In this document: piece by piece, positions 1 through 57,303 of the stretch
How positions within the stretch are numbered: position 1 is the stretch's first letter
How the letters are laid out: each line of letters begins with the position of its first letter
Assembly (NCBI GenBank): GCA_965222705.1
Contig: CBDCUO010000032.1
Location: 116,308 to 180,307, forward strand
From: Saprospiraceae bacterium
Lineage (GTDB): Bacteria; Bacteroidota; Bacteroidia; Chitinophagales; Saprospiraceae
Length of the DNA stretch: 64,000 nucleotides
Direction: 5' to 3'
The notes under the pieces: generated by a model
Told to the model about the DNA's origin: nothing
Databases searched by the model: none
Seen by the model: only the letters and a program-made list of their open reading frames with translations
Position numbers and translations under genes: made by a program

Positions 1-1458
1 CTCCCACGACTACGACTACTTATACGGTGGTCGCAATGAATGCTCAGGGTTGTACAGGAAGCGATCAGGTCACTGTATTCGTAATGCCAGGGGAAGATAT
101 TGTTGCTTGCCCTGACAAATTTATCTGTGGTGGTGGAAGCGTAAGATTGACCGTGAATGGTGGAGTAAGTTGGGTCTGGAGCCCAGCTACCGGTTTGGAT
201 AATCCAAATATAGCTGCACCGATTGCATCTCCAACTGTTACAACACTTTACACCGTAACAGGCACAGATGCCAATGGTTGTACGGATACAGATGAAGTAT
301 TAGTAATAGTAAATGGAAATATTGCAGCCAATGCAGGGCCGGATGTAACCATATGTCAAGGCAGCTCTACTAACTTAAATGCTTCTGGTGGAACGACTTA
401 CAGCTGGAGTCCAGCAACGGGTTTGAGCAATCCAAACATTGCTAATCCAACAGCTAGTCCTTTATTTACAACAACTTATACGGTAACAGTGACTAATGCA
501 GAAGGCTGTATCGGAACCGACCAAGTAACGGTTCATGTCAATAATATTGTGTTGATTAATGCAGGCTCAAATGTAACCATTTGTCGGGGAAGCGCTACTA
601 TTTTGAATGCTTCGGGGGGAACCAACTATTTTTGGATGCCGACAACGGGCTTGAGTAATCCAAACATTGCCAACCCAATTGCTAATCCAACAACCACGAC
701 TACCTACTGCGTAACTGTCCAGAATGCCAATGGATGTATGGGAACAGATTGTGTGACGGTAACGGTAAGAGATGGTGCGGAAGTAGTTGCTTGCGAAGAT
801 AAAACGATTTGCGCAGGAGGTAGTACGCCTTTGACTGTAACAACGGGCATTGCCTATTCCTGGAGCCCAGCAGCCTCTTTAGATAATCCAACGGTTGGTA
901 CACCAATAGCTAGTCCTCTCGTAACCACTACTTATACCGTGACCGTAACGGATGCCAATGGATGTATTGGAGTGGATCAGGTAGTTGTCAATGTAAACTC
1001 AGGAGAAGTCGCTAACGCAGGCAATGATGTCAGCATTTGTGCAGGTTCTTCTACACAGCTAAATGGATCAGGAGGAACGACTTATAATTGGAGTCCAACA
1101 ACGGGCTTAAGTAATCCATTCATAGCTAATCCAATAGCTAGTCCGACAACTACTACAACTTATACTTTGACGGTTAGTAATAATTCAGGCTGTACCGATA
1201 CCGATCAGGTAATTGTCGGTGTGACAAGTATGGCAAATGCCAATGCAGGCAATGATGTCAGCATTTGTGCAGGGGAAAGTACTCAATTAAATGCGACAGG
1301 CGGAATGACTTATAGCTGGAGCCCAACCACGGGCTTAAGCAATCCATTTATTGCTAATCCGGTTGCCAGTCCAATAACAACAACCATTTATACAGTAACT
1401 GCGACAACCAGTGGAGGCTGTGTAGCGACAGACCAGGTAATTGTTGGCGTTCATTCAG
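1..1458 (+). repeat. In-frame tandem array of ~228-bp (~76-aa) Ig-like modules inside the CDS
   Basis: The recurring peptide SWSP(A/T)TGL(S/D)NP.IA.P.ASP..TT.YTVT...GC..TDQV.V.V appears six times plus a partial copy at the window start. Confidence 0.8.
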
Positions 1459-8300: not shown

Positions 8301-9870
8301 TGGCATAGTGAAACACTTTGTCTTTTACATCAATCAACTCAGATTCTTTATCGTATTTAATAAACCCTTTGGAAACCATATCGTACAGCAAAGGCTGAAT
8401 ACTGCTAATATTGAAGCGAGAATTTAGGCGTTTGGCGTATAGTCCGGCATCGACTTGTTTAGAGCCTTCCATATCGGAAAAAACTTTTAAGGTAGAAATG
8501 GGATTAACTGCTCCAAAACTTTGTAGCCTTTGATAATCACCAGCAGAAAAATATTTTAAAGACTCAAAAGCCACTTCTTTCTTGCTATTCTTGCCAACAG
8601 CTATCGCCTTCTCTCCTATGGTAATCGAATCTCGGTCAATATACCAGGTAACTTTGTCTGCATCTATATTAATTTGGTGAAAAGAGGTGAAAAAAGGATT
8701 TCGATCGCTGCCTCTTTCTCCTCGACTAAAGGACAGAATTCTATTAATAATGTCAAAACGCAAATTAACAGAAGGATGAACAATCGAATCTTCCTCTACA
8801 AACAATTCAATTTCTACCCTTTCTCCAGTAATCAATTCTCCTTTTTGAATAATAAAATTTTCTGCATTGGCCCGAAAAATTAATTTTTCATTTTCATCGA
8901 AAAGCAGAATGCTGGCAGGCGCTTCTTTTGAACCACTTCCGAGGACATTTGTGCCGTGTAATTTAAAAGAACCAATGTATTTTATCCCTGGGCCCAGGTT
9001 GTCAATTTCTAATACTTTTTTAAAGTTGAATCGAGGGAAAGATTTTATTTGTTCAGAAGCGACTAATTTGTCCTGGAAAATTCCTTTTATAGAATCTTGA
9101 AACATAGTGGGATAATAAAGCACTGCCTCTGCTACCTCATAGATCGTATTTTTTACATTGATTTCGTATCTGCCCAAATTGCAATAATGATCGGTTGATA
9201 AGCTGTGTCGTTCCCAAGTGACTTGTCCTTTTGTCCCTTTCCAAATATTTTCTAGGGGAAAAAAAGTTCCTATCGTTTTTTGAATGTAAAGAGAGTCCGT
9301 TTTTCGGGAAGCCAGCAAATCTAACTGATTAAATAAGACTTGGGGCGTTTTCTCTTTATAAATCAAATTGAAAGAATCCGCTATGGCATACCAGGAAACA
9401 CCCCCGCTTTGAGAATATTTTAAAGCATTTTGTTCAAACAAGTTCGCCGAAAATTCTAAATAATCTTTGATGGGGTTTAACCTTCGTCGCTCAATGTCCG
9501 TCATCATGCTTGATAAGACTTCATGCCATTCGATGAATCGCTGCGCTGCATTTTGCTGAGTTTTTATAAAAGTCAGCCCTTTTAAATAGGCGCTAAAATA
9601 GGGGCTGGCGGTCATTTTTAACTGAAGCATTCTGTTGCAAGTGTGTTTGATCGTATCTTGCTCCTCTACTGTAAAAGTGCCGCCCCGAAATTGCTTGCCA
9701 AACTCCTCAAAAATCTCCTGCATGACTTTTCGCTTGCTGGCGGTCATATAGTCTTTTAATTCCTCAAAAAACTGATTTTGATTTTCAGAGAAAGCTTCCA
9801 GGCGTTGGGCATTGCCAGCGAATAAAAAGGTGGTAAGTAAAAGAAAAGTGGTAAAAGCTTTTTTAGGCAT
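5389..9870 (-). CDS. Large (1493 aa) exported protein of unknown function
   Basis: This is a long uninterrupted ORF with an ATG start and a signal-peptide-like N-terminus (MPKKAFTTFLLLTTFLFAGNAQ). I recognise no catalytic motif. The composition is beta-rich and repetitive. Confidence 0.75.
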   Translation of the reverse strand: MPKKAFTTFLLLTTFLFAGNAQRLEAFSENQNQFFEELKDYMTASKRKVMQEIFEEFGKQFRGGTFTVEEQDTIKHTCNRMLQLKMTASPYFSAYLKGLTFIKTQQNAAQRFIEWHEVLSSMMTDIERRRLNPIKDYLEFSANLFEQNALKYSQSGGVSWYAIADSFNLIYKEKTPQVLFNQLDLLASRKTDSLYIQKTIGTFFPLENIWKGTKGQVTWERHSLSTDHYCNLGRYEINVKNTIYEVAEAVLYYPTMFQDSIKGIFQDKLVASEQIKSFPRFNFKKVLEIDNLGPGIKYIGSFKLHGTNVLGSGSKEAPASILLFDENEKLIFRANAENFIIQKGELITGERVEIELFVEEDSIVHPSVNLRFDIINRILSFSRGERGSDRNPFFTSFHQINIDADKVTWYIDRDSITIGEKAIAVGKNSKKEVAFESLKYFSAGDYQRLQSFGAVNPISTLKVFSDMEGSKQVDAGLYAKRLNSRFNISSIQPLLYDMVSKGFIKYDKESELIDVKDKVFHYANASREKVDYDLLKITSASNDANAIMDLKHKDMAINGVKNIEFSKKQRVGAIPTNKTLIVKDNRNMEFDGRLFAAYGVFEGKGFAFNYDMFNIKMDSVHYFNLFVPTEERDKKGNPIAKAIGSEIEYLSGYLLIDAPSNKSGSQNIGIFPSFQSKADSYVFYDQDSVYNRDSFYFQLEPFSFNSLDKFQGADLNFKGKIVSAGIFPDFEETLILKEDQSLGFLTKTPEAGYPIYRNRGNYKGAIDLSNQGFQGKGTLTYLGALVNSDDFVFKPEEMTASAERFDLEEDRSKEIPQAIGLDVRINWLPYSDSMNIRTKELPFDLYKEGDYKFSGLATLTPSGLKGSGLLNWEKANMSSDEFSFGSFSARSDTMNIQIKALEADALALKTSNLKGEVDFDKQLGTFKSNAAIGITYFPYNQYITTMDEFEWDIKDETIIFKSARNDYADFTSIHPAKDSLTFPGKSAFYNLKNSQLEIGGVSEIRSCDAFIYPETGDITIQPNGDMKRLTNAKIVADTLNKNHVINRVNIDITGRKEFSADGYYEYNIGNKKQEIYFSNITGSRVGKGKRSEKGTETRAKGTIKEEDNFYIDIKTQFRGDISLFASSKNLQFEGFAKFDAPLMPDPQWFTINSEGDKDDLTITYEVPKNYEGTPLRTGFYLSKENTRIYARTMMPLFFRKDRPILPVTGLFKYDKAKDEFIFGDSTKVIENKLRGSLLTFSNKTGKVKGEGPLNIGDGLDYISIKAAGEIETHYPNEQDSSTFDAPVVANMMAGVDMTIPPSLLRIVVNDIVSSSFDATDIAYSNKEAFYTKALSNFLLNDTELNETVNIMKNRTLFFPKKYKHHTFFFSDLLMKWDPDYQSFVSSKDVIGLGSIGVDMINKNLTCYVEFKMPSNGDDRVYIYIKSPSEYFYFFSYRGGILSTVSNNTRYNDALASLKKKETIIKMPDGENYEIQPLNPGSARQFVARIKATR

Positions 9871-14957: not shown

Positions 14958-15266
14958 CAGGTTGCCCTAAGCCGCTTGTAGAGGAGCAGTTGAGCAGATT
15001 ATGCCCGATCATTTTTGAAATGATACGGCCTGTTTTTAGCCAAAGAGGAGATTAGTTTTGCAATTTTTTGATTATTATATTAAATTACTAGTTTTATAAA
15101 AGCCCCTCATTTCTCTAAAAGTGGAATTAATCAGAAACGAGAATAACTAAATCAAAAAAGTCTCGTAACAACGAATGGGTGTAATTCACCCAGACCTTAT
15201 CATTTCACTATTTTTCCAAAACCGATTTACTGAAAAGTCAGTTGCTGACTTTTGCAAAGTGGACTA

Positions 15267-16010
15267 ATGAATAGTATTATTTCTGTTTTGCTAGTTTGCC
15301 TGATTGGCTTAAGCTATTGGCTATTGAAGCTGAGAAGGAGATGTGAACTGCTGGAAGAAACGATCAGTGAACTAAAGGAGGTGCAGGAAGCCAGGGAGGC
15401 TAGAGCAGCCTTGGAAGGAAGTGGCCAAGAAAGAAAAAGACTGGCCAAAGACTGGCATGACGGCATGGGCAATACGCTCTCTACCCTTAGGCTATTACTT
15501 GAAAATGCTACCTTTGAAAATGAGGAAAGGCAGCAAGAAATCGTGCAATTACTGGAAGCAGCACAGCAAGAATTTCGTCAAATAGTTGATAATGAAACGA
15601 TTGAATCTTTTTCCAATCAGGCGGAAATTCTTGGAACCTTAAGGAAATGGCAAAACCAACTAAAATTGGGAAATATTAATTTTTTATATAAAATGTATAA
15701 CTTTTCCAATTTTAAAAACAACAAAATACATTTAAAAAATCAAATATATAGAATCGCTCAGGAATTACTTAGCAATATCATTAAACATGCCAATGCGTCC
15801 AAGATAGAGCTGGAACTATTTGAAGCTAATGGAACTATCCAGTTAATTGCATCGGATAATGGAAAAGGCATAAAAACGAGTGGGCAAAAAGAGAGCTTAA
15901 TTCCTGGCATTCGAGAAAGGGTTGTTAATTTAAATGGCCAATTATTGATCGACACAAACGAAGGCTTCGAAACCGTAATTAAAATAACGGTTCCTACACA
16001 ATTGGAATGA
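15267..16010 (+). CDS. Small membrane-anchored sensor histidine kinase (HisKA_3 / NarX-DegS type)
   Basis: It has one N-terminal TM segment (NSIISVLLVCLIGLSYWLL), a coiled coil, the H-box DWHDGMGNTLS, and an HATPase N-box/G-box (AQELLSNIIKHA, DNGKGI). The ATG at 15267 is preferred over the listed TTG at 15252. Confidence 0.8.
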   Translation: MNSIISVLLVCLIGLSYWLLKLRRRCELLEETISELKEVQEAREARAALEGSGQERKRLAKDWHDGMGNTLSTLRLLLENATFENEERQQEIVQLLEAAQQEFRQIVDNETIESFSNQAEILGTLRKWQNQLKLGNINFLYKMYNFSNFKNNKIHLKNQIYRIAQELLSNIIKHANASKIELELFEANGTIQLIASDNGKGIKTSGQKESLIPGIRERVVNLNGQLLIDTNEGFETVIKITVPTQLE

Positions 16011-16211
16011 TGATTGCCCTTGATGATATCATATTTGATAGTATTTGTTTGCTTTTAAGAGTATGATTGAGTTTTGTTTTTTAGTGCTGAAAACGCAGCG
16101 GATAGGGCAGTTCAATTGCTTAGATTTACTCAATTTTCAAAATTTTAGGAACTCTGCCCCTTTACATATAAATTAAACATATTCTGAAATCCCTGAAATA
16201 AAAAAGTACCC

Positions 16212-16871
16212 ATGAACGATGGTATTCGAGTATTAATCGCCGATGATCATCTATTATTTTTAGATGGTTTGAAGCGGGTATTATGCGAAGCAAAAGCCTT
16301 TGATTTTGCCATAGTAGGCACAGCTACCTCTGGACAGGAGTTAATGAGGCTAGTAAAAACGACAAAACCACATATTGTTTTCCTAGATCTAAATATGCCG
16401 GGTATGGACGGCCTAGCAGCTATGGAAGAAATAAAGGCTTGGAACAAGGAGGTGAAAGTGATCGTTGTGACCATGTATGATGATAATAAAATCGTAAAAA
16501 CGGCTTTAAAATCCGGCTGTAGAGGCTATGTGCTAAAATTATATGGCAAATATGAACTTTTTTCGGCAGTAGAAGCCGTCCTTTCTGGTGATACCTATAT
16601 TGGGAAGGGCATTGACTTGACGGATCAGGGAATTCCCAAAAAGCCACAAGTAAAATTTGATGATACTTTTGTCAGAAAGCATAAACTAACCAAGAGAGAA
16701 CTGGAAATATTGAAATTAATTAGCCAGGCATTGAGCAATAAGCAAATTGGAAAAGAGCTATTCATTAGCGACCAAACCGTTAGCGTTCATAGAAAAAATA
16801 TTATGCGAAAACTAGGCGTCAGCAATACAGCAGGTTTGATAAAAGTAGCTTATGATAATAGTCTTATTTGA
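16212..16871 (+). CDS. Response regulator, LuxR/NarL family
   Basis: The receiver domain has ADDH.., VFLDLNMPGMDG and a conserved Lys region. The C-terminal LuxR HTH is LTKRELEILKLISQALSNKQIGKELFISDQTVSVHRKNIMRKLGV. Confidence 0.9.
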   Translation: MNDGIRVLIADDHLLFLDGLKRVLCEAKAFDFAIVGTATSGQELMRLVKTTKPHIVFLDLNMPGMDGLAAMEEIKAWNKEVKVIVVTMYDDNKIVKTALKSGCRGYVLKLYGKYELFSAVEAVLSGDTYIGKGIDLTDQGIPKKPQVKFDDTFVRKHKLTKRELEILKLISQALSNKQIGKELFISDQTVSVHRKNIMRKLGVSNTAGLIKVAYDNSLI

Positions 16872-17451
16872 TGCAAGTATCAAATAGAAATAAATCGTAT
16901 AATGACGGCAATTAGCATATCAAAACCGCTAAAATAATTTATTTTCTTGCGAATTATTGAAAATTTGCCTTACTTTGTCCCTGAAGTAATCCTGAAACAC
17001 ATATTTATTATAAATATTTTCCCATGAACTACAAATACGATGTGCATAAAGAGCATCAAATCCCCCTTTCATTTCTTGGAGCCTACCGGCTCGAAAATTT
17101 TCAGAGAAATAATTAGGTTTAGTAGTTCTTGCTAAAAGATAGTGGCATTATCACCTTTTTAATTTTTGGACTGATGCCTACATTAAATTCAAAAGTAGAA
17201 TTCTCATAGACGACCAGAACTGAAATTTTTCAATTATCCGTAGAATTGCCTTATACGGAAAAGTACTCATCACCTTTCATGGCATTAAGGAGCCTCTCTA
17301 AAAAAACAGAGGTCGCTTTACCTATGATTTATTTTCAAAGGTGTCACTCTGGTAAGCTAGTATAAGCACTAGCTATCATATTTAAGAAGTTGAGGGAGAA
17401 TTATCTTTGTTTAAAATTAAAGCATTTTTTTGCTTATATAAAAAATAGTGG

Positions 17452-17468
17452 TGTTCGATTAAAGTATG
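17452..17468. repeat. IS terminal inverted repeat (orfB-proximal end)
   Basis: TGTTCGATTAAAGTATG is the perfect reverse complement of 18655-18671. Confidence 0.75.
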
Positions 17469-18133
17469 GAGGGTTTAGGAACTCTCCAAAATAATAGTTC
17501 TTTGATAGTCAGTATTTTGTCGATTAACCCTTCTGCCATAGCAGGTGATTTTTTCTGGTATTTTGTTTCAAAAAGTGCTGCTTGAGGATTAATTAATATT
17601 CTCAAAGCACAATTTTCGTTACAATAATTGAAAAAAGCGGTCAATAGATTGATATGTGCATCATGGTATTTCACCTTTTTAGAATGGCACATTGTCTTTC
17701 TAGTCAAACGAGCATCGTCTTTACGATATTTACCATTTCTACTCTCAACAAAAGAAGTATTAATGGTTTTTGACCGTCCGTTTTTTCGGATGATTGCTAA
17801 AATCTCCGCCTCTGTTCCTTTGATAATTCTAGTAGTCACACTTTTAAGTTTGCCCTTGGCATCTCTTTCTTTATAGACTTGGGCATATTTCAAATTACTA
17901 TCTACTATTCTTTTGGGTATAGACGGTCGACCTCTACCTCCATATGGAACAGGCTCGTAGTGACAATAGGTCTCATATAAGACTTCTTCATAGAACCAAG
18001 CATCTGATAAAAATAATGGAGCTACTCCATCACTTTTGTCTTTTATTTTGTTAAGAAAAATTCTTGCTTGTGCTAAAGTTCTTTTGCCACTATGTACAGT
18101 ATGAACAAATCCTGTATCAGGTAAAACAGCCAC
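17459..18133 (-). CDS. IS1-family transposase orfB (InsB-like DDE region), probably made as an orfAB fusion by -1 frameshift
   Basis: The frame stays open upstream to the A8 run (reads ..KKKKNLTHEERQKSELDPEFADKQGDRWSFVAV..). SDAWFYEE parallels IS1 TDGWPLYE. VESRNGKYRK..RLTRKT parallels IERHNLNLRQHLARLGRKS. The stop codon lies inside the terminal IR. Confidence 0.8.
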   Translation of the reverse strand: MAVLPDTGFVHTVHSGKRTLAQARIFLNKIKDKSDGVAPLFLSDAWFYEEVLYETYCHYEPVPYGGRGRPSIPKRIVDSNLKYAQVYKERDAKGKLKSVTTRIIKGTEAEILAIIRKNGRSKTINTSFVESRNGKYRKDDARLTRKTMCHSKKVKYHDAHINLLTAFFNYCNENCALRILINPQAALFETKYQKKSPAMAEGLIDKILTIKELLFWRVPKPSIL

Positions 18134-18174
18134 GAAGCTCCATCTATCTCCCTGTTTATCAGCAAATTCAGGGT

Positions 18175-18621
18175 CTAGCTCGGATTTTTGTCTCTCTTCA
18201 TGTGTAAGGTTTTTCTTTTTTTTCTGATAAAGGACCAGAACTCATCTATTTGTAATTGTTCCAGATGCATTTGCTCTTGCATGTAATTCGTAAATTCATC
18301 ACAATGAGTGCCTGCTTTTTCTACCCAAGCTAAAAGGGAATCTGAGGTGACATCTGCTTGTTTACAAGTCTGGTTGACCCCCATTCCTCGAACTAGTAAG
18401 AGCAAGGTATTTATCACTTTTTCAATCGGTGTACGTAAATCAAAAAACATCGTGCCTTTGGTCAAGACCCAGCGATTACCACATTCGTTGCAATATACTT
18501 GGCCTTTTGACCGACTATTAATTTTGATATTTCCTGACTCTGGTTGATTGTAATAAACGCAATCTGGATTATCACAATACTGACGTGATTTTAATAAATC
18601 AAATTCTTCTTTACTTAGCAT
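18175..18621 (-). CDS. IS1-family transposase orfA (InsA-like: zinc finger, HTH, and first DDE aspartate)
   Basis: It has a Cys4 finger (CDNPDC...CNECG). The motif LQIDEFWSFIRKK parallels IS1 EMDEQWGYVGAK. The ORF ends shortly after the A8 slippery run. Confidence 0.8.
   Translation of the reverse strand: MLSKEEFDLLKSRQYCDNPDCVYYNQPESGNIKINSRSKGQVYCNECGNRWVLTKGTMFFDLRTPIEKVINTLLLLVRGMGVNQTCKQADVTSDSLLAWVEKAGTHCDEFTNYMQEQMHLEQLQIDEFWSFIRKKRKTLHMKRDKNPS
18216..18223 (-). promoter_or_regulatory. Putative programmed -1 ribosomal frameshift site (A8 run, context AGAAAAAAAAGAAAAAC)
   Basis: orfB is in the -1 frame relative to orfA, and the two frames overlap only around this homopolymer. IS1 elements are known to use A-run slippage. 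Confidence 0.6.
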
Positions 18622-18654
18622 TTGTATTCTCTTTTGAATACAAAGTTAATCTAT

Positions 18655-18671
18655 CATACTTTAATCGAACA
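18655..18671. repeat. IS terminal inverted repeat (orfA-proximal end)
   Basis: CATACTTTAATCGAACA is the perfect reverse complement of 17452-17468. Confidence 0.75.
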
Positions 18672-18955
18672 GTGCTTAAAAAATAATATAATTAAAAACT
18701 GAAAGAAGGGGAAAAGCAAAAACAATCAAGAAGTGTTCTCGTAATTAAAAAATGAAAAGAATAAATTCCCTGATGTGACTGTAGCTAAAATAATTGTCGC
18801 TCATCCCATTATAGGGTGAAAGAAACGGATACTTAACTGCGAAATCCTTTGTGTTCCTTGCAGTAAAAAAATAGCTTTCCCCCTTTTCTGGATAATAAAC
18901 GACAACTTTATTTATAGAAAAATATCATTCGGAAGTGCTAAAACCAGTTGCCTAG

Positions 18956-19747
18956 ATGACCATCAAAAAAATATTATTCACCTTCGGCTTTATTGTCTGT
19001 ACTTGTGTTTTTTTAGAAGCACAGATACAGTTGATGACTTCTGACGCAACGGCAGATAAGGGACAGGTGGTTGATATTGACATCATTATTTCCGGTTTTA
19101 GCGGGATTGTCGGGATGCAATTTTCTATTAATTGGGATAGCACGATATTGGTATTTAAAGAGGTGAATAATTTGACAGAACAATTGCCTCAATTTACCGA
19201 AGACGAGATAGGCCTAGCAGAGGTCGAGTCCGGAGCGATTAGGGTAGTGTGGATTGATAATTCGGTTAGTGGCGTGAATCTGGAAGACAGCACTTTATTA
19301 TTTACTTTAAAATTTGAAGTGATTGGCGAACATGGAGCTATTAGCCCCATTCGTTTTTCTAACCAACCAATTGCTATTGAGTTTATTGATACAGAAGGAG
19401 AAGTACAAATGGGTATAGAATTGATAGATGGAGAAGTCAAAATTCCCGATAATACGACCCCTGTCCTAGTCCAAGAAGTAGCTAATAGGGTGCAATTATT
19501 TCAAAATGACCCCAATCCTTTTCATTCTACTACAAAGATTATAGCTCGTTTTTTTAATTCGGAGCGAACGCAATTTTATATATCAACAATTGGCGGAAAA
19601 ATTATTTACCGCACTTCTTTTAAACCAATACCAGGCATTAATACGATAGAAATTGGGCGGTCTATTTTAAAGACTCCCGGAATTTACTTCTATACCTTGC
19701 AAGGTGAAAAATACCAGCTTTCAAAGAAAATGATTTTGTTGCCCTAG
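18956..19747 (+). CDS. Secreted single cohesin-like-module protein with T9SS type-A C-terminal sorting domain
   Basis: It has a signal peptide and a cohesin-like module (DKGQVVDIDIIISGFSGIVGMQFSINWDSTILVFKEV...IRFSNQP...DGEVKI). The Por-secretion-tail pattern follows (LFQNDPNPFHSTTKI...GIYFYTLQGEKYQLSKKMILL). Confidence 0.75.
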   Translation: MTIKKILFTFGFIVCTCVFLEAQIQLMTSDATADKGQVVDIDIIISGFSGIVGMQFSINWDSTILVFKEVNNLTEQLPQFTEDEIGLAEVESGAIRVVWIDNSVSGVNLEDSTLLFTLKFEVIGEHGAISPIRFSNQPIAIEFIDTEGEVQMGIELIDGEVKIPDNTTPVLVQEVANRVQLFQNDPNPFHSTTKIIARFFNSERTQFYISTIGGKIIYRTSFKPIPGINTIEIGRSILKTPGIYFYTLQGEKYQLSKKMILLP

Positions 19748-20305
19748 AAAGGAAAAAGATTTTATACAGTGTAACGTAATGAGATATCATAATTCTTCTT
19801 ATCGGGATAATCAGAAATAAAAAACTCGATAGAAGCATCACACAGGAAATAGTTATTTGATTATTTAAGATAAATGCCACGGGGATATTTGTAAATAAAA
19901 ATGTAAGACCTGATAGCTAAATTATTACAAAATATTTGCTGATTCATGGATGAGTTTTTAATACTGAGGCTTTATGTTTCGGAATAAAAACACTCAAATT
20001 TCCGCCTTTGCTTTTATCTGCCCTATATAAATGCAGCATATAGGTTAAAAAGTTCTTTTGCGAACTCGGTGTAAAAAGAATGATGAAAATTAAAATATTT
20101 TTATTGGCAATCTTATCTTTTTGCATTTTTTATGCTACATCGAAATTGCTCAAAGAACAAAAAATTACAATTCATTTATTTGAATAAAGCCATAATTAGT
20201 GCGTCAATGGTCTTAAATACAAAGATTTGTCAAAGTTGGCACGTTTTTGTCATATGTAAAAAATTAAAATGTAAGATTCGCTAATTATCCCAAACTCCGT
20301 TCGTA

Positions 20306-22921
20306 ATGAATAAGATTGTTACTGTTCTTATCGCAGGTCTATTACTATTGACATCTGCAATGTATTCTCAAACTTCCTTTTCCATAAATCCTTCTGTTAT
20401 TAATGGCAATGTTGGCGAAACGGTCACCGTAGAAGTAATCGTGAATGGTTTTACAGATATTGTCAGTATGCAATATGCCCTTAAATGGGACCCTGCAGTC
20501 ATCAAATTTGCGTCCGTAGGAGATTTTAATCTGGACTTTTTACTAGCTTCCAATTTTAACGTTAATACAGCTAATACAGATTTAGGAATTCTGCCGCTTT
20601 CCTGGTTTGATAATAATACGGTAGGTATCACAGTAGCAGATGGAACGGCTATTTTTTCTGTGAGTTTTGTGGTCCAGGAGGGCAATAATTCCGGTTCCAC
20701 GATTACTTTTTCGGAGGCAACCAACTTAATTATCGAAATAACAGATGCTAATGGAGATATTACCAATACAGTGACTTTCAACGATGGCCAATTCGGTGAT
20801 CCCAATAATAACGGGGGAGGGAATACAACTCCTTTGATTTCAAGTATTTCAAGTGGGTCGGGTGCAAGTGGTGGAACGGTGTGCCTAAATGTGTCGGTTT
20901 CTAATTTTACAGATATTACGGAAATGCAATATTCGCTCAACTGGAATCCTGCCGTGCTTCAGTTTGCCGAAATAAGAAATATGAATCTGACAGGCTTAAC
21001 GCAAGCTAGCTTTGAAACGACCCAAACAGCCAATGGGCAATTATCGGTGGATTGGTCTAATGCATCCGGGCATTCTGTTGCTAATGGCACAATTATATAT
21101 CAAGTATGTTTTAATTTGATTGGAGAAGGGGGCACTAGCTCTGCTGTTTCCTTTTCTAGCTCCCCAACCCCTATTTCTGTCACGACTACCGCTTCTGCCA
21201 CTTCGGTTGGCATAAGTGGGAGTAATGGTACTATTGGGGTGACAGGCGGCAGCAGCTCTACCGATTTTAGATTGCTTGCTTCTGCAGAAACGGGAAATTC
21301 AGGCGAAACGGTTTGTGTACAAATTTCTACCCAAAATTTTACAGATATTGTCAGTATGCAGTACAGTATGAATTGGAATTCGGCAGTATTGCAGTTTGAC
21401 ACCATTTTGGGGGCTAATTTAAATGGATTATCTTTTGGAAGTTTTAATGGAGCGGTTCCTGGAGAACTCCGATTTACTTGGGATGATCCCTTGGCACAAG
21501 GAATTACTTTGGCAGATAATACAGTCATCTATGAGGTGTGTTTTACTATTGTAGGGTCGGGGGGATCTAGTACCAATATAAATTTTACAAACTCTCCCAC
21601 ACCGATTGAAATCATAGATGGAACTAACAATGAAGTGCCTTTTAATAGTACTGCTGGAGCAGTAACAGTCCTAAGCGGGACAGGTACTTCTACTGATTTT
21701 AGATTAATTGGCTCTACGGAAACAGCAGAGGCTGGCGAAACGGTTTGTGTACAAGTTTCTACCCAAAATTTTGACGATATTATTAGTATGCAATACAGCA
21801 TGAATTGGAACCCTGCTGTATTGCAATACGATACCATTCTGGGAATTAATCTGAATGGTCTATCGGTTGGAAATTTTAACCCATCTGTGGCTGGTGAGCT
21901 TCGATTTACCTGGGATGACCCCCTGGCGCAAGGGATTACTTTGGCAGACAATACCGTTATTTATGAGGTGTGTTTTGTAGCAGTTGGTTCGGCAGGAAAC
22001 AGTTCTACCGTAAGTTTTTCCAGCTCTCCAACGCCCATAGAAATTATAGATGGAGCGAGTAATGAAGTACCGTTTTTTAGCACTGCAGGGCTAGTAACCG
22101 TAGTAAGTGGGGGCGATGGAGGAGGGCCGGACTCGAGTGCGGTTTTTAATGTTGCAGATACGACGGCAGTACCAGGAAGCAATATATGTGTACCTGTTAC
22201 TTTGACTAATTTTACAAACATACTTGGGTTTCAATTTTCTATGAATTGGGATCCTATGGTGATTCAATTTGATACGATTATGAATTTTGGACTGGATGGA
22301 TTGACTGGGGGCAATTTTAATACGGTGGTACCAGATGATGGAACGCTTAGAGCGACCTGGACAGACCCACTGGGCACGGGTGCTTCGGTAAGTGACGGGA
22401 CAATTGCTTTTGAAATTTGCTTTGACGTAATTGGGGCCGATGGAACCAGTTCAAATTTGGCATTTACCAATACACCCATTGCTCAAGAGTTGGTAGATAA
22501 TTCAGGAACAATTGACTTTCTGGCTAATGACGGAAGCATAACGGTAAATAACGATGTGATTATCCCTCCTATAGAGCTTACTGTCATGTTTTCAGACGCA
22601 AGTGTCACAACAGGAGAATCTGTATGCTTACCGGTGACTGTTAATGGTTTTACCAATATTGAAGGAATGCAATATAGCATGAATTGGGACCCTGCCGTAT
22701 TGCAGTATGATACTGTTCGAGGCTTTAATTTGACAGGATTGACAGCAGCGAGTTTTAATAATTCCGATCCTGGAGCTTTGAGATTGCTTTGGCAAGACCC
22801 GAATGCCCAAGGAATAAGCATTGATGATGGTGTGGCTATTTACGAGGTTTGCTTTATTGCGGTGGGAGCGGGAGGCACTAGTACAGACATAGGGTTTTTC
22901 GGGTACACCTCTAGCCATTGA
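20306..22921 (+). CDS. N-terminal part of a frameshifted ~1757-aa multi-cohesin surface scaffold (six modules)
   Basis: It has a signal peptide and six tandem ~140-150-aa modules (GETVCVQ(I/V)STQNF.DI(V/I)SMQYSMNWNPAVLQ(F/Y)DTI...). The ORF stops 8 codons after a T5 tract (22895-22899), in the middle of module six. Confidence 0.8.
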   Translation: MNKIVTVLIAGLLLLTSAMYSQTSFSINPSVINGNVGETVTVEVIVNGFTDIVSMQYALKWDPAVIKFASVGDFNLDFLLASNFNVNTANTDLGILPLSWFDNNTVGITVADGTAIFSVSFVVQEGNNSGSTITFSEATNLIIEITDANGDITNTVTFNDGQFGDPNNNGGGNTTPLISSISSGSGASGGTVCLNVSVSNFTDITEMQYSLNWNPAVLQFAEIRNMNLTGLTQASFETTQTANGQLSVDWSNASGHSVANGTIIYQVCFNLIGEGGTSSAVSFSSSPTPISVTTTASATSVGISGSNGTIGVTGGSSSTDFRLLASAETGNSGETVCVQISTQNFTDIVSMQYSMNWNSAVLQFDTILGANLNGLSFGSFNGAVPGELRFTWDDPLAQGITLADNTVIYEVCFTIVGSGGSSTNINFTNSPTPIEIIDGTNNEVPFNSTAGAVTVLSGTGTSTDFRLIGSTETAEAGETVCVQVSTQNFDDIISMQYSMNWNPAVLQYDTILGINLNGLSVGNFNPSVAGELRFTWDDPLAQGITLADNTVIYEVCFVAVGSAGNSSTVSFSSSPTPIEIIDGASNEVPFFSTAGLVTVVSGGDGGGPDSSAVFNVADTTAVPGSNICVPVTLTNFTNILGFQFSMNWDPMVIQFDTIMNFGLDGLTGGNFNTVVPDDGTLRATWTDPLGTGASVSDGTIAFEICFDVIGADGTSSNLAFTNTPIAQELVDNSGTIDFLANDGSITVNNDVIIPPIELTVMFSDASVTTGESVCLPVTVNGFTNIEGMQYSMNWDPAVLQYDTVRGFNLTGLTAASFNNSDPGALRLLWQDPNAQGISIDDGVAIYEVCFIAVGAGGTSTDIGFFGYTSSH

Positions 22922-23412
22922 AATAATCGGAACTGCACAGACGGTTAATTTTAATAGCCAATCCGCAACCGTATTAGTTACAGAAGAAATAATGCCGCCG
23001 GAGGAAGGTATATTTAATGTAGCCTCGGTTACTTCCCTAGAATCTAATGTTTGTATTCCAATTACTTTAAATGATTTTGCAGACATACTGGGTTTTCAGT
23101 TTTCTATGTCCTGGGATACAGCCGTCATTCGGTTTGATACAATCATAAATTTTGGGCTATCGGGCTTGTCAGGCGGTAATTTTAATACGAGAATGCCAGA
23201 TAATGGGACGCTTCGATCAACTTGGACAGACCCACTCGGTACAGGGGTGTCTGTTGATAATGGGACAGTTGCTTTTGAGTTATGCTTTAATGTAGTGGGG
23301 GAAGAGGGTGAAAGTTCAGTAATTGCATTTACTAATACGCCCATTGTTCAGGAGTTAATAGCCAATAGTGGTGCAGTTGATTTTACTTCAAAAAGCGGAA
23401 CCTTTACAATTG
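20378..23412 (+). repeat. Seven in-frame tandem cohesin-like modules (~420-450 bp each)
   Basis: Modules 3/4 and 5/7 are especially similar at the peptide level, for example TWDDPLAQGITLADNTVIYEVCF in both 3 and 4. Confidence 0.75.
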
Positions 23413-25580
23413 GAGATCCAGGAAACCAGTGTCCCGGACCTATTTCTGCCATACCTAATGCTCCAAATAATGTAAGCTGTAATGGAGCTAATGATGGCAG
23501 TATCAGTTTGGTAGTAAGTGGTGGCAACGGGGTTTATAATTATCAATGGAGCGATCCAAATATTGGCAATACGCCCAACCCAACCGACTTAGCACCGGGG
23601 GTTTATAATGTGACTATTACGAGCTGTGGAGGGCAAGAAGTAGTCGATAACCTTCCCGCTTCTTTACTAACAATCACAGAACCTTCTGATATAACTACGG
23701 TAGTTACGCCACAGGATGCCACTTGTGCAGGCGAAGCTAATGGCAGAATTAATGTGTCCATTGAAGGGGGAACCGCAGATTATGATTATGAGTGGAGTGA
23801 TGCTACTTTGGCGCCTTTAAATAGACCGGTCAATGCACTTCCAGGTACTTATAGTTTGATCGTTACGGATGCCAATGGTTGTATGGATACTACAGAAAAT
23901 ATTGTGATAGGGGCTCCTGCTGCAATTGCTGTGTCTGTAGAAACCACCAATGCTACTTGCAGTGGTAATCCTGACGGAACAGCAACCTTGAGTGCTTCTG
24001 GTGGTTCTGGGGAACCGTATAATTTTGACTGGGGCGTAGGAGGCATTACAGGAGCAAACCCCATGAATGTTCCATCGGGTGATTATACAGTGACAGTTAC
24101 AGATGATAACCAATGTACCAACTCCTTTACCGTATCTGTGGGGGCTGATACAGTTCTTTCAGGGACATTTCAAGCGATAGAAGACGCTTGTGGCGACAAC
24201 AAAGGCGCCATTAATGTTATACCTTCCGGAGGCATAGAGCCTTATACCTATACATGGGAAGGCCCCGTTGATATAGGTAATGTTTCTATGCCATTGAATA
24301 TTCCTATGGGAAATTATAACGTTACAGCGACGGATGTCAATGGCTGCTTTTTTACTATTAATAATATAGAAGTTAATGGGCCCTCCTCTGTGCTTGCGGT
24401 GAGCGAAACTATCCAAAGTCCTAACTGTTTGGAAGATACTAATGGCTCCATTAGTCTTAGTCCTTCGGGGGGATTCGCTCCTTACACCTATGAATGGAAC
24501 CCCGATCAAAGCGATAGTTCGATTTTGAACAATACAGGTGTGGGGACCTATACCGTAACTATAACGGATAGTAAAGCATGTACTTTGGTAAGGAGCTATA
24601 CGGTCAATTCTATTTCCAGTTTAGAGGTTGATGTCACAGTAGTAGGCAGGGAAGCCACAGCAGTTGCCTCAGGTGGGGTAACTCCTTATAGTTATGCGTG
24701 GTGTTTGCCAGATTCGACTGGAGAAAGCGTGGCTGGACTGAGCGAAGGGGATTGTAGTGTCACGGTAAGCGATGCACAAGGCTGTGAAGCCATTCAATCT
24801 TTCGAAGTATCAGCAGACACGCTTGTCGCTCGGGTATTAGCGCCAGGCCCGGTTAGTTGTAATGGTGCAGAAGATGGCATTTTACAAGCAATGGGTACAG
24901 GCGGAACTCCCCCCTATAATTATTTGTGGAGCAATGGAGCCACTAGTGATATTTTAATGAATGTAGGAGCGGGCAATTATACGGTGACGATTACTGATAA
25001 TCTCGGCGAAACCCAGGTCACTTCTTTTACATTAAATGCCCCTGATCCTATTATCATTAGCACGAATGAATTGCAACCTTCCTGTGTAAATGATGGAAGA
25101 ATAGAAATTGGGATTAGTGGAGGTACTATGCCTTATCGAACGGTATGGTCCAATGGAGAAACTGGTGTTTTATCAATTAATGGCTTGAATTTTGGCGACT
25201 ATGGAGTCGTGGTTACAGATGATAACGATTGTGTAGAGGAGGAAAGTTTTACCATTACTGTTAGCACGGATCCGAGTTGTAGAGAATGCTTTAAGGCGAT
25301 TCCGGTTATTACACCTAACGATGATGCAGTAAACGATGATTTTATCATCAATTGTGTTGGCACTGCTCCTAATAATCGCTTAGAAATTTATAACAGATGG
25401 GGTGAATTGGTCTTTGAAATGGATAATTATGCTTGTGAAAGCCCTGGTCAAGCGGGTTGTTGGCAAGGAGAAAGGCGAGGTATTCCACTACCCCCTGGAG
25501 GTTATTTTTGGGTGCTGGAATATGATGGCCCCAATGGAAGAGTACGAATCAGGGATCACGTAACTATTAGACGAGATTAA
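22992..25580 (+). CDS. C-terminal part of the same scaffold: seventh cohesin-like module, ~8 SprB-type repeats, T9SS type-B CTD
   Basis: This frame is open from 22893 and reads GFSGTPLAIEIIG, which completes module six. SprB repeats are present (CNGANDGSISLVVSGGNGVYNYQWSD and others). The CTD is ITPNDDAVNDDF..IYNRWGELVF..GGYFWVLEY. Confidence 0.8.
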   Translation: MPPEEGIFNVASVTSLESNVCIPITLNDFADILGFQFSMSWDTAVIRFDTIINFGLSGLSGGNFNTRMPDNGTLRSTWTDPLGTGVSVDNGTVAFELCFNVVGEEGESSVIAFTNTPIVQELIANSGAVDFTSKSGTFTIGDPGNQCPGPISAIPNAPNNVSCNGANDGSISLVVSGGNGVYNYQWSDPNIGNTPNPTDLAPGVYNVTITSCGGQEVVDNLPASLLTITEPSDITTVVTPQDATCAGEANGRINVSIEGGTADYDYEWSDATLAPLNRPVNALPGTYSLIVTDANGCMDTTENIVIGAPAAIAVSVETTNATCSGNPDGTATLSASGGSGEPYNFDWGVGGITGANPMNVPSGDYTVTVTDDNQCTNSFTVSVGADTVLSGTFQAIEDACGDNKGAINVIPSGGIEPYTYTWEGPVDIGNVSMPLNIPMGNYNVTATDVNGCFFTINNIEVNGPSSVLAVSETIQSPNCLEDTNGSISLSPSGGFAPYTYEWNPDQSDSSILNNTGVGTYTVTITDSKACTLVRSYTVNSISSLEVDVTVVGREATAVASGGVTPYSYAWCLPDSTGESVAGLSEGDCSVTVSDAQGCEAIQSFEVSADTLVARVLAPGPVSCNGAEDGILQAMGTGGTPPYNYLWSNGATSDILMNVGAGNYTVTITDNLGETQVTSFTLNAPDPIIISTNELQPSCVNDGRIEIGISGGTMPYRTVWSNGETGVLSINGLNFGDYGVVVTDDNDCVEEESFTITVSTDPSCRECFKAIPVITPNDDAVNDDFIINCVGTAPNNRLEIYNRWGELVFEMDNYACESPGQAGCWQGERRGIPLPPGGYFWVLEYDGPNGRVRIRDHVTIRRD

Positions 25581-25654
25581 AATAAGGGTACATTTTCAAA
25601 ATGTTGATCGAATAATAGATGAAATATTATTCCCAAAAGCTTAATTTATTTATA

Positions 25655-26587
25655 ATGAAAAAAACTATACTCTTTGTATTTGTATTATTTAGCCTGGGGA
25701 TTTATGCTCAGGAACAATCTGCTTTTACCCATTATCATATCAATCCCTTACTAATTAACCCTGCTTCGGCTGGAGTAAGTGGGAAGCATCAACTGATGCT
25801 CAATTTTCGAAACCAATGGACGGGATTCCCTGGTGCGCCGAAAACGCTTGCTTTCTCCTATGACGGACCAATTGGCAAGACTTTTGGAATAGGAGCGACC
25901 ATTTACTCGGAGGATATTGCTTCTATTAGCCGTTTTAGGGCAGCGATTAATTATGCGTTTCGTTATCAGTTGGATAAATTAAAAGTAGGCTTTGGTTTTA
26001 CGACCGAATTCAGCCAGGAGCGATTACCTGGTGACTTATTGACTAATAATACCGATTTTTATATAAATACCGATAATATCTTGAATGACGGTATTGACGG
26101 CGTGAATGAATTTGACGCAACGTTGGGCTTTTTTGGAATATATAATGACCAAACCTGGTTCGGCATTGCTTTCCCAAATATCATTAATGCTCGTTTGGAC
26201 GGGACGGTGACGGATAATCGAGACCAAACAGAGGGTTATTATCTATTTAATATGGGTCATCGCTTTAAATCTCGCCAATATGGTTTTATCTTAGAGCCTT
26301 CAATTTTGTTGCGGAAGGCTCGGTATGTGCCTTTTCAGGCGGATATTAATCTAAAAGGCTATTTTATAGATGAGCAACTAATTGGTGGACTGTCCTATCG
26401 AGGCGGCTCCAGAGGGGCTATAGGGATTTTGGTCGGAACGAAATTATCTAACTTTGGCTTTTATTATTCTTTTGATGTATCCTTCAAGCGATTTCAGCGA
26501 TATAATAATGGCTCGCACGAAGTTACAGTAGCTTTTAGTTTTGCCAGAAAAGAAAAACCCGTCGTCAACGGAACGACAAATAATTGA
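25655..26587 (+). CDS. PorP/SprF-family T9SS outer-membrane protein, cognate partner of the upstream type-B cargo
   Basis: It has a signal peptide MKKTILFVFVLFSLGIYAQ followed by the family N-terminus QSAFTHYHINPLLINPASAGV, and is about 310 aa and beta-rich. It lies immediately 3' of a type-B CTD gene. The internal ATG at 25655 is preferred. Confidence 0.85.
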   Translation: MKKTILFVFVLFSLGIYAQEQSAFTHYHINPLLINPASAGVSGKHQLMLNFRNQWTGFPGAPKTLAFSYDGPIGKTFGIGATIYSEDIASISRFRAAINYAFRYQLDKLKVGFGFTTEFSQERLPGDLLTNNTDFYINTDNILNDGIDGVNEFDATLGFFGIYNDQTWFGIAFPNIINARLDGTVTDNRDQTEGYYLFNMGHRFKSRQYGFILEPSILLRKARYVPFQADINLKGYFIDEQLIGGLSYRGGSRGAIGILVGTKLSNFGFYYSFDVSFKRFQRYNNGSHEVTVAFSFARKEKPVVNGTTNN

Positions 26588-26694
26588 ACCAATTGATAGT
26601 TAAGAAAAGTCGAAGCTAGGAAAAAAAGAATTTTAGAAATGTACTCCTCTACATAAAGACGTAAGATGTCCTTTAACAATTGGTTTTTGGGATG

Positions 26695-26727
26695 GCCCCT
26701 CTCGACAAGAGAGGGGCTTCTCTTTTT
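26695..26727 (+). terminator. Intrinsic terminator between convergent PorP/SprF and gldG
   Basis: A 9-bp GC-rich stem GCCCCTCTC/GAGAGGGGC with a 5-nt loop is followed by TTCTCTTTTT. Confidence 0.65.
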
Positions 26728-26772
26728 GAGTATTTTTTTTAATCATTCCCTTAACCGCTCTGATACCAATCC

Positions 26773-28278
26773 TTAAGCATATTTTTCCTGCATTCGTTTC
26801 ATCCGCTTATTTCGCTGCATCGTCGAACGTATAACGCCATAAACCAAAACCAAAAGTAAGGGTAGGCCAAAGTTCAGGTATTTCCAAAAATTTCGTTTAC
26901 TTGCATTTTCATCGCCTAGGTATTCGCTTTTTATAGGGCGGGAAGCGACTCCTTTTGTGCGCAATTCTATCAAGCCAGTATCGTCAGATAACCAATCAAT
27001 ACTATTGACCAATAGGCTGGAATTATCGGAACGTTGTCCACCTCTTTGCTGACCACTTACGGCAAAGTCCCCATCGCCAAAAACGACCAGTTTTCCACTA
27101 GAAATACCGTTTTCTAAAATGCCTCCAACTACTAAATTAGATAAGGGCAAATCTGCTGAGGTCCACTGTTTTTGCACGTCGAACATCAAAGGCGGTTTTA
27201 GAGTTCCTGCTCGCTCCGAAGAAAAGGCAATAGGGGTGAATATAGCAGAGCTATCCCCCGTAAATCGAATTGGGCTGGCAAAGGGCATCATCATTTGTTC
27301 TAGCCCTTTGGTGATTGGATGCTCCGCGAAATTGGAAATCATAGGTAAAAAGGGAAAACTAACGGGCGTATTCATCAAAAAAGGCCCTTGTCGTTGCTGA
27401 ACGGTCACACTACCACAGGCTGCATCAATCAAAAAACTACCCTCCACCTCGATTCCTTTAGCAGCGAGCCAGGTCTCTAGACTCGTGGTTACTTCTGTGC
27501 CTTGTGCAGTTGATAAATCTCCGTGGACTCGATTAATAGCCACTAAAATTTTCCCTCCTCTATTATAATAATCATCCAATTTGGCAAAATGATCAGGAGG
27601 AATAGAATCTTTTGGTGCAATAAATGCAACTGCCCTAAAGCGATCTGCAATGCTGGTTTCTGTATTTAAATCAATGTTTTCTACCGTATATAAAATAGAC
27701 AAGGATTGATAAGCTTCTTGCAAATCGGATAGGGAAGGTGCCCCATACCCCTGAATCAAGCCCACCGAGGGTTTTTCTAATACACTTATTTTTTTAATAC
27801 TGGTAGAAAGGGTGTATTCCATACCCGAGCCGGATACCAAAACGGGGATAATCTCTTGTTGGTCGCCCGACTTCATCACCGCTCCCGAAAAGACACGCTG
27901 TTGCTTGGACTGATCTTTTTCTCTCACCTGCACCATCAATGGCTGAATACCATTTTGCATAGCTTCTTGCTGCTTGGCTTCACTTTCTCCGGGGTCTATA
28001 AATTCGTAATCAATCATTCCTTTGGACAAAGTGGAATACTCGAACAACATCTCCTGGAAGTCCTCCTTGACCTTTTTCATTTGTTGGGGCATATCTTCTG
28101 AAAAATAGGCAGAAATGGTGATAGGGTCTTCCAGATTACCAATAATATCTTTGGTTGCTTTACTCAGTGTAAATTCTTTATCTTCTGTCAAATCCAGCCG
28201 ATAAAAAAAACGCTTGGATAAGATATTGACCAGTATTAAAATTCCGATAATCAAAAAAATAGAGATAGAATTTTTCAT
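26773..28278 (-). CDS. gldG: Gliding-motility ABC transporter auxiliary component GldG-like
   Basis: It has N- and C-terminal TM anchors flanking a large extracytoplasmic domain. It sits last in an ABC ATPase / ABC-2 permease operon in a Bacteroidota context. Confidence 0.65.
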   Translation of the reverse strand: MKNSISIFLIIGILILVNILSKRFFYRLDLTEDKEFTLSKATKDIIGNLEDPITISAYFSEDMPQQMKKVKEDFQEMLFEYSTLSKGMIDYEFIDPGESEAKQQEAMQNGIQPLMVQVREKDQSKQQRVFSGAVMKSGDQQEIIPVLVSGSGMEYTLSTSIKKISVLEKPSVGLIQGYGAPSLSDLQEAYQSLSILYTVENIDLNTETSIADRFRAVAFIAPKDSIPPDHFAKLDDYYNRGGKILVAINRVHGDLSTAQGTEVTTSLETWLAAKGIEVEGSFLIDAACGSVTVQQRQGPFLMNTPVSFPFLPMISNFAEHPITKGLEQMMMPFASPIRFTGDSSAIFTPIAFSSERAGTLKPPLMFDVQKQWTSADLPLSNLVVGGILENGISSGKLVVFGDGDFAVSGQQRGGQRSDNSSLLVNSIDWLSDDTGLIELRTKGVASRPIKSEYLGDENASKRNFWKYLNFGLPLLLVLVYGVIRSTMQRNKRMKRMQEKYA

Positions 28279-40230: not shown

Positions 40231-40313
40231 GAGTAATTTGAATAATTTTTTGTAAAAATTCTTTCTTTGACAAAAATACAATAGATGCACAGGAAAAGCC
40301 ATAGCGAATAGAG

Positions 40314-57233: not shown

Positions 57234-57303
57234 ACCGTAAGGTGGATTGTGCTTATTTCAAAAATAAAACCTTCTGAGATTATCTTATAATCAAATAAAA
57301 AAC

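Follow-up and report, generated by a model that had tools for sequence, protein, structure and literature searches.

A predicted type IX-secreted cohesin scaffold in a Saprospiraceae bacterium and a candidate dockerin-based system of surface assembly

Two neighbouring genes of a Saprospiraceae bacterium encode proteins built from cohesin modules and ending in type IX secretion system (T9SS) sorting domains. They lie at positions 18956–26587 of the 64,000-nucleotide stretch analysed here (hereafter the window; positions 116,308 to 180,307 of contig CBDCUO010000032.1, GenBank assembly GCA_965222705.1). The favoured reading, held with moderate confidence, is that the locus would encode part of a non-cellulosomal cohesin–dockerin system for assembling proteins at the cell surface, held at the outer membrane through a PorP-like carrier. 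Both proteins, a large scaffold and a small single-cohesin protein, would be exported as T9SS substrates. The scaffold, in which seven cohesins at the N-terminus precede a stalk formed by eight SprB repeats and a terminal type B sorting domain, would most likely be retained at the outer membrane after export by the product of the next gene downstream, a PorP/SprF-like barrel. This last step is drawn by analogy with type B cargo that stays bound to its cognate PorP-like barrel, as with PG1035 and PorP in Porphyromonas gingivalis and SprB and SprF in Flavobacterium johnsoniae (PMC9143113), and a precedent within the Saprospiraceae is the grappling hook protein GhpA with GhpB (PorP) and GhpC (PorE) (bioRxiv 10.1101/2024.01.29.577165). 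The small protein, again by analogy, would have its type A domain processed and be either attached to anionic lipopolysaccharide (A-LPS) or released. The cohesins would serve as docking sites for dockerins near the C-terminus of giant T9SS proteins with HYR/Ig repeats, as synteny and homology in related genomes suggest, and the outcome would be a polyvalent surface complex following the scaffoldin principle, with adhesins in place of glycoside hydrolases. The role of such a complex, inferred like the PorP anchoring and the cohesin–dockerin binding from sequence and analogy, may lie in adhesion or in the capture of prey or particles.

The scaffold contains seven modules of about 140 residues, repeated with a period of about 145 residues and each carrying the motif (M/F)Q(F/Y)S.NW(D/N); together with the module of the small protein, the eight modules of the locus share 25–77% pairwise identity. 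The original prediction had likened this module to clostridial cohesins, and the comparison has been borne out. The Pfam Cohesin profile (PF00963, gathering score 24.1 bits) matches the 5′ open reading frame (ORF) of the scaffold with 153 bits in 6 stretches and the repaired scaffold protein, described below, with 161 bits in 7 stretches, while a phmmer search against solved structures retrieved the ScaB cohesins of Acetivibrio cellulolyticus (3l8q, E=9e-7). Module 7, which shares 62% identity with the highest-scoring of the modules, module 5, gives no Pfam Cohesin score by itself. An AlphaFold2 (AF2) model of module 5 reached a predicted local distance difference test score (pLDDT) of 87.4 and a predicted template modelling score (pTM) of 0.81, and the top 50 Protein Data Bank matches in a Foldseek-type fold comparison are cohesins throughout. 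The best is CohA2 of Clostridium acetobutylicum (6kgc_A; TM 0.82/0.80, root-mean-square deviation 3.0); the non-cellulosomal cohesin of Archaeoglobus fulgidus (2xdh, TM 0.76) and the Clostridium perfringens structures 2jh2 and 2w1n are also among the matches. The model of the small protein (pLDDT 73.9) returned the same list of cohesins, with TMt values up to 0.80, and both predicted structures have the nine-stranded flattened beta jelly roll. The structure prediction that had been proposed as a check on a single module has therefore returned a jelly roll at TM 0.80–0.82 to solved cohesins and not a generic Ig or FN3 domain. By profile, by match to solved structures and by predicted fold, the modules are judged to be true cohesins, and at about 140 residues the modelled modules resemble the compact type I cohesins more closely than those of type II.

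The small protein (263 residues; 18956–19747, plus strand) consists of a hydrophobic leader followed by one cohesin at residues 22–161 (nucleotides 19019–19438) and a type A T9SS sorting domain at residues 186–260 (nucleotides 19511–19735). Both domains of the expected one-module architecture score above their cut-offs, with 29.4 bits for Pfam Cohesin and 28.9 bits against a cut-off of 23 for TIGR04183, the type A C-terminal domain (CTD); the Pfam model PF18962 gives 22.6 bits, under its threshold of 27. Nine orthologues of 262–264 residues, 44–64% identical to it, keep both domains.

The large protein had been described as a single polypeptide of about 1757 residues, and its content of seven cohesins, eight SprB repeats and a type B CTD has held, although it does not lie in a single ORF in this sequence. 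The coding region is divided into plus-strand ORFs of 871 and 862 residues in different frames, and 18956–26587 comprises four plus-strand ORFs, not three. The 5′ part (20306–22921) encodes a leader, modules 1 to 5 (20372–20791, 20828–21247, 21260–21679, 21692–22111 and 22133–22552) and most of module 6, which runs from 22571 to 22991 across the break in frame at a run of five T residues (22895–22899). The 3′ part (22900–25580) continues in the other frame, where the ORF is called from 22992 (22992–25580), and encodes module 7 (22998–23417), the eight SprB repeats (about 23450–25290) and the type B sorting domain (about 25305–25571). Deletion of one T yields a single 1757-residue protein without internal stop, in which the junction ...IGFSGTPLAIEII... 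aligns with ...VGFSGNPLQIEIV... of the intact orthologue at locus L001, where the run has four T residues; the junction is also represented by ...TSTDIGFSGTPLAIEIIG... of the repaired protein, aligned to ...TSTNVGFSGNPLQIEIVG... of the intact orthologue (TTTT). Against Pfam, the repaired protein scores 197 bits for its eight SprB repeats and 65 bits for CHU_C, and the 3′ ORF alone scores 215 bits for SprB in 8 stretches and 67 bits against 27 for CHU_C (PF13585). The type B CTD model TIGR04131 matches the scaffold C-terminus with 39.3 bits against a cut-off of 35. As sequenced, six cohesins are separated from the CTD; they stand on one polypeptide with it after removal of one T and in the four orthologous loci L001, L002, L004 and L005, whose intact scaffolds have 1757, 1979, 1806 and 1958 residues.

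Since the 5.3 kb contain no other lesion and the sequence downstream of it is intact and scores highly throughout, the frameshift is either an error in reading a homopolymer or an inactivation of very recent date. Programmed +1 frameshifting at TTT_T was considered and rejected, because all four orthologues read through the site with four T residues. It is possible, though rather unlikely, that the locus is decaying, with a real frameshift, a scaffold gene reduced to a fresh pseudogene and a regulation disturbed by insertion of an IS1-family element. Such decay would account for an extra T where four orthologues are intact, for a public gene call on the source contig that likewise has 871 residues (P0013), and for the element found between the regulator gene and the small cohesin gene, which orthologous spacers lack. 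It fits less well with the isolation of the lesion and with the strong scores still given by module 7, the eight SprB repeats and the CTD downstream of it; homopolymer miscalls are, moreover, a common sequencing artefact, and the scaffold genes of two further drafts are also split, which points to technical trouble with repetitive genes. In L006 (10875–20492), a long-read metagenome-assembled genome (MAG), the scaffold gene falls into three overlapping ORFs with about 15 cohesins, and in L008 (10772–18965), the cultured Phaeodactylibacter xiamenensis KD52, it is split into 516 and 2224 residues with about 12 cohesins. These splits could be errors of repeat sequencing or assembly, or recurrent real frameshifts. 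The locus in the window is a well-formed, possibly broken, member of a wider cassette.

The gene directly 3′ of the scaffold, beginning 38 bp past its stop codon (25619–26587, plus strand), encodes a 322-residue outer-membrane beta-barrel of the PorP/SprF family, as had been predicted; it matches PF11751 with 176 bits and TIGR03519 with 193 bits against a cut-off of 90.55. A PorP/SprF gene also adjoins the scaffold in L001, L002, L004 and L005. A GC-rich hairpin followed by a T-run (26694–26718, plus strand) resembles a terminator and, by its position between the PorP gene and a convergent GldG-like gene, is taken to mark the 3′ end of the unit. The scaffold had earlier been placed on a gliding cell surface, and the corresponding alternative is that its SprF-like partner moves it along the gliding track as an adhesin of the SprB type. 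This is very unlikely, although eight SprB repeats, a type B CTD and a neighbouring PorP/SprF gene are what such an adhesin would have, and genes for GldA-, GldF- and GldG-like ABC transporter proteins lie just downstream on the opposite strand (TIGR03522, TIGR03518 and TIGR03521 are their best models, all matched below equivalog cut-offs). In F. johnsoniae, a Cys-X-Cys motif in the C-terminal tail of SprF is required for a disulfide link to GldK and for movement, the motif having been defined in that protein and its close homologues (PMC12635249). Cysteine is absent from the barrel encoded next to the scaffold and from all four of its orthologues, which hence have no such motif for attachment to GldK; the scaffold, at 1757 residues, is also far shorter than SprB, for which a length of 6,497 residues is quoted (in bioRxiv 10.1101/2024.01.29.577165). 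The proposed placement on a gliding surface is accordingly not upheld, and the absence of cysteine makes a static anchor likelier than a propelled adhesin.

A scan of genomes yielded more than 486 relatives. They come almost entirely from MAGs of Saprospiraceae and Lewinellaceae and include the cultured P. xiamenensis KD52; the genomes scanned did not include the source species, and the best match is 51% identical. Cohesin, SprB and CHU_C are a common combination among homologues of the 5′ ORF, some of which already carry the NCBI name "cohesin domain-containing protein". Among 1.84 billion representatives, a profile of the seven modules matched 7,597 clusters at E≤1e-3 and, at the stricter limit of E≤1e-30, 1,065, with up to 13 modules per protein. 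Routine annotation can pick up the members of this large family.

The evidence for a dockerin partner comes from these relatives. A set of 80 genome loci was retrieved by a query of cohesin plus type A CTD, and their domains were called with purpose-built hidden Markov models (HMMs), a sample being cross-checked in Pfam. A dockerin-like module with the consensus NGVST.DLVLI.KHILG...L.SPYK.IAAD.N.SG.ITT.D.V.LRKLIL occurs in 101 ORFs of the 80 loci, and 79 of these ORFs also have a cohesin. Its usual setting is a C-terminal cassette in proteins of 1,000–3,500 residues, in which a CarboxypepD_reg-like domain, recognised by Pfam in L008, comes first and is followed by the dockerin, a cohesin and the type A CTD. 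Among five of these giant proteins checked in Pfam, four pass Dockerin_1 (23.0–28.1 bits against a gathering score of 22.9), and the fifth (L027) has no Pfam dockerin match, its dockerin being called by the custom HMM alone. All five have the type A sorting domain; HYR domains are present in four and PKD in the fifth (L012), fn3 or Ig-like domains occur in some, and none of the five has an enzyme domain. In several loci (L012, L013, L020, L027, L054, L063, L066, L075, L079 and L083), two or three paralogous giants stand in tandem arrays and end in dockerin(-cohesin)-type A CTD, the cohesin having been lost in some.

The dockerin-bearing genes adjoin scaffold genes in many loci. A scaffold-type ORF, meaning one with several cohesins and/or a cohesin combined with a type B CTD, is present in 35 of the 80 loci, with a PorP gene in 25 of these, and in 23 of the 35 a dockerin-bearing ORF lies directly upstream on the same strand, P. 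xiamenensis KD52 included. Two layouts recur. In the first, a dockerin-bearing giant is followed by a small single-cohesin protein with a type A domain, a multi-cohesin protein with a type B domain and PorP (L006, L008, L022 and L081, and partially L023 and L065). In the second, a type A giant with a cohesin on each side of its dockerin precedes a type B protein of three or four cohesins and PorP (L015, L017, L018, L021, L026, L033, L040, L041, L042 and L064; in L080 the giant has the order dockerin–cohesin). By nearest neighbour, the cohesins separate into a scaffold class (130 of 144) and a class of the post-dockerin cassette (77 of 79), as would be expected if their binding specificities differed and in a manner reminiscent of cohesin types.

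An alternative reading takes the scaffold as a direct adhesin, whose modules would bind another ligand (a polysaccharide, a prey or host surface, or one another) or act as spacers. This is doubtful. It would agree with the lack of a dockerin in the window and in the flanks of the five orthologous loci closest to it; adhesins of Bacteroidota typically have SprB repeats and a type B CTD, and cohesin-like modules outside cellulosomes are known to have other partners, 2jh2 and 2w1n of C. perfringens being examples. However, it leaves aside the dockerin gene directly upstream of the scaffold in 23 of 35 loci, the closest folds are those of dockerin-binding type I cohesins, and seven individually conserved modules suggest seven maintained binding sites rather than spacers. 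The synteny and homology together tentatively suggest a so far undescribed T9SS cohesin–dockerin system of the Saprospiraceae, in which a PorP-held scaffold, sometimes with an A-LPS-bound single-cohesin protein, would recruit giant adhesins through their C-terminal dockerins; the adhesins' own cohesins would allow chains or networks, and the partners of the scaffold in the window would be encoded elsewhere in the genome. The earlier proposal of a polyvalent docking scaffold is strengthened by the dockerins found directly upstream of the same cassette in relatives and qualified by the frameshift in the scaffold gene here, and its ligand, then left unspecified, can be narrowed in relatives to a defined class of dockerin of which the window contains none.

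Several observations weigh against the proposed dockerin-based assembly. The window has no dockerin recognisable by the custom HMM run over all six frames with filters off or by two regular expressions, and none is encoded in the fetched flanks of the closest loci L001, L002, L004, L005 and L007. Should the frameshift be genuine, no T9SS signal would remain joined to the six N-terminal cohesins. The query used to retrieve the 80 loci enriches for proteins that combine dockerin, cohesin and CTD, and the adjacency of such proteins to scaffold genes is the one independent element. The first calcium loop of the dockerin-like module is one residue below canonical spacing (NGVST.D), which makes the module atypical. 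Finally, the giants carry a cohesin and a sorting domain of their own, and contacts in cis or between like molecules could suffice without a scaffold. A dockerin-profile search of a collection of 5.8 billion proteins returned only fragments of 55–111 residues, none of them on the source contig. In L002, a 1273-residue ORF with HYR and cohesin domains follows PorP directly and runs off the locus.

The description of the locus as something other than a cellulosome has stood. No Pfam dockerin, glycoside hydrolase or carbohydrate-binding module was detected among the 37 window ORFs of at least 120 residues that were scanned, a set that left out five short ORFs whose span is shared with larger genes of the other strand, and the C-termini of the two cohesin proteins are of T9SS type and not of SLH or sortase type. 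Firmicutes scaffoldins, such as CipA of Clostridium thermocellum, ScaB of A. cellulolyticus and CipA of C. acetobutylicum, are nevertheless close in plan: they too carry tandem cohesins of about 140 residues on one secreted, cell-associated polypeptide, and the window modules are recognised by Pfam Cohesin and overlay type I cohesins with a TM of about 0.8. The small protein, with its one cohesin, is reminiscent of the anchoring scaffoldins OlpA and SdbA. In contrast to these systems, the host here is a Gram-negative member of the Bacteroidota, export would proceed through the T9SS and anchoring is proposed through a PorP-like barrel or A-LPS. The locus differs from cellulosomes in lacking SLH domains or a sortase motif, a carbohydrate-binding module and, within the window, a dockerin-bearing glycoside hydrolase, and the candidate partners in relatives are adhesin-like HYR/Ig giants and not enzymes. 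Cohesin and dockerin domains have been reported outside cellulolytic organisms, with roles that are unknown or non-cellulolytic (Peer et al., 2009, as cited in PMC6487960). The present proteins share this setting with the non-cellulosomal cohesins of A. fulgidus (2xdh) and C. perfringens (2jh2) but differ from them in forming arrays of seven modules, with up to 13 in the family, tied to T9SS domains, SprB repeats and a PorP gene. The arrangement of a large repeat protein with a TIGR04131 end followed by a PorP/SprF gene is the one seen in SprB/SprF, in PG1035/PorP/PorE and in GhpA/GhpB/GhpC of Aureispira; unlike these, the passenger here is a cohesin array, no PorE/OmpA-like gene adjoins the cassette and, compared with SprF of F. 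johnsoniae, the Cys-X-Cys tail is missing.

Non-cellulosomal cohesins and dockerins, pairs of T9SS type B protein and PorP, and automatic annotation that flags such proteins are already known. In the open-access literature, no description was found of cohesin arrays on T9SS substrates or of their synteny with dockerin-bearing adhesins, and the paper on Aureispira ixotrophy mentions neither cohesin nor dockerin. If the proposed system is real, it would extend the cohesin–dockerin principle to a Gram-negative phylum, to other machinery of secretion and anchoring, and to adhesins rather than enzymes as cargo. The pairing of cohesin with dockerin is a classic case of programmed extracellular protein assembly and, to our knowledge, has been characterised almost only in the cellulosomes of Gram-positive bacteria. 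The Saprospiraceae system would then correspond, in Gram-negative bacteria and without enzymes, to the cellulosome, serving adhesion, the formation of flocs or the capture of prey, and would give a concrete new function to pairs of type B CTD and PorP. Saprospiraceae are abundant in activated sludge and on marine particles, and such a system could help to explain their sticky surfaces. It would also be a source of orthogonal cohesin–dockerin pairs for synthetic biology. The cultured P. xiamenensis KD52 has the full four-gene arrangement, and the idea is directly testable in that organism.

The genes of the locus stand in a conserved order. Upstream, on the plus strand, a histidine kinase gene (15252–16010; HisKA_3 and HATPase_c by Pfam) and a gene for a NarL/LuxR-type response regulator (16212–16871; Response_reg and GerE by Pfam, with support from NCBIfam and synteny) precede the small cohesin gene. 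The position of the kinase is also filled in the compared loci L001, L002, L004 and L005, and as a conserved upstream neighbour it is a candidate regulator of the locus. In L002, L004 and L005 the order is NUDIX, kinase, regulator, long spacer, small cohesin gene, long spacer, scaffold and PorP, and L001 has the same order from the kinase on, with the GldG/F/A-like genes also kept downstream. Between L001 and the window, the small protein is 64% identical and the scaffold 77.6% identical over 1750 residues, and each window module is nearest its positional counterpart in L001 (70–84% identity). It follows from this module-by-module correspondence that the seven-module array is old and its modules individually maintained. 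The long spacers had been taken as consistent with accessory status. The 558-bp spacer between the small cohesin gene and the scaffold (19748–20305) is real; however, gene order and long spacers are conserved in relatives and the modules are orthologous one by one, which is at odds with such a status. As a conserved feature, the long spacers are no sign of recent acquisition, and recent horizontal transfer is rejected on the basis of the conserved synteny together with an unremarkable GC content (0.39–0.43 in the locus, against a range of 0.34–0.45 across the window). Specific to this genome are only the insertion sequence (IS) and the frameshift.

The long spacers are probably regulatory. Blocks of the 558-bp spacer are conserved in all five loci when these are aligned, and this spacer is probably a promoter or a 5′ leader of the scaffold gene; the blocks themselves could be operators bound by the adjacent LuxR-type regulator, or they could belong to a long 5′ leader. 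The stretch 3′ of the response regulator gene (16872–17190) is well conserved in comparison with L001. Conserved blocks of 19748–20305 and 16872–17190 read ...AAACACTCAAATTTCC...CCCTATATAAATGCAGCATATAGG, with an inverted repeat CCTATA/TATAGG, and further blocks are TGAATAAAGCC.TAATTAG and, immediately 5′ of the scaffold ATG, CTAATTATCCCAAACTCCGT. Searches for exact patterns missed the spacer motifs because of insertions and deletions. A scan for sigma-70 promoters gave 34 matches compared with 32 in shuffled sequences and hence no excess, sigma-70 being the wrong promoter type for Bacteroidota, and an Rfam scan of 16000–27000 at E≤1 gave no match.

The insertion element lies between the regulator and the small cohesin gene (17452–18671, minus strand). 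Perfect terminal inverted repeats of 17 bp (17452–17468 and 18655–18671) enclose its 1,220 bp, in which two minus-strand ORFs stand in different frames. The first (18175–18621, 148 residues) has a cysteine-rich N-terminus with CxxC pairs and matches the IS1 transposase model NF033558 transpos_IS1 (E=1.2e-10, 41.7 bits, under the cut-off of 100), and the second (17459–18133, 224 residues) has no match in Pfam or NCBIfam. The flanks of the element, TAGTG–IS–GTGCTTAAAAA, are contiguous in the orthologous spacer of L001 as TAGTGATTAAAAA, indicating a clean insertion with an ambiguous target-site duplication of 3–4 bp. The IS1 element noted earlier beside the locus is taken as a probable, divergent member of that family, in view of its inverted repeats and the sub-threshold transposase match.

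Elsewhere, the window contains a second type B cassette at 50283–60672. A 2316-residue protein with seven Ig_7 domains and CHU_C (50283–57233) is followed by a PorP/SprF gene (57304–58227) and by a gene for a protein with OmpA, PD40 and CarboxypepD_reg domains that is PorE-like in appearance (58312–60672), which is the order of ghpA, ghpB and ghpC in the Aureispira grappling hook (bioRxiv 10.1101/2024.01.29.577165). Repeats similar to calcium loops in the 2316-residue protein (about 52215–52451; DINGDGMIDGD, DTDIDGIPDWHDLD) were the sole hits of this kind when the window was searched for dockerins and were set aside, as they resemble thrombospondin type 3 repeats instead. At the edge of the window, 27–3650 (plus strand) encodes a 1207-residue protein with Ig_7, PKD, SprB and CHU_C, and at 38023–40302 (minus strand) lies a gene for 759 residues that include DUF6851, a helical bundle resembling VCPO and a type A CTD. 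Together with the two cassettes, these genes bring the T9SS cargo genes of the 64-kb window to at least five. Its largest unannotated gene (5389–9870, minus strand) encodes 1493 residues with no match in Pfam or NCBIfam. A 700-residue caspase-domain protein (Peptidase_C14; 47754–49856, minus strand) and a 937-residue patatin-like phospholipase (40314–43127, minus strand) are also encoded in the window and are unconnected to the cohesin locus.

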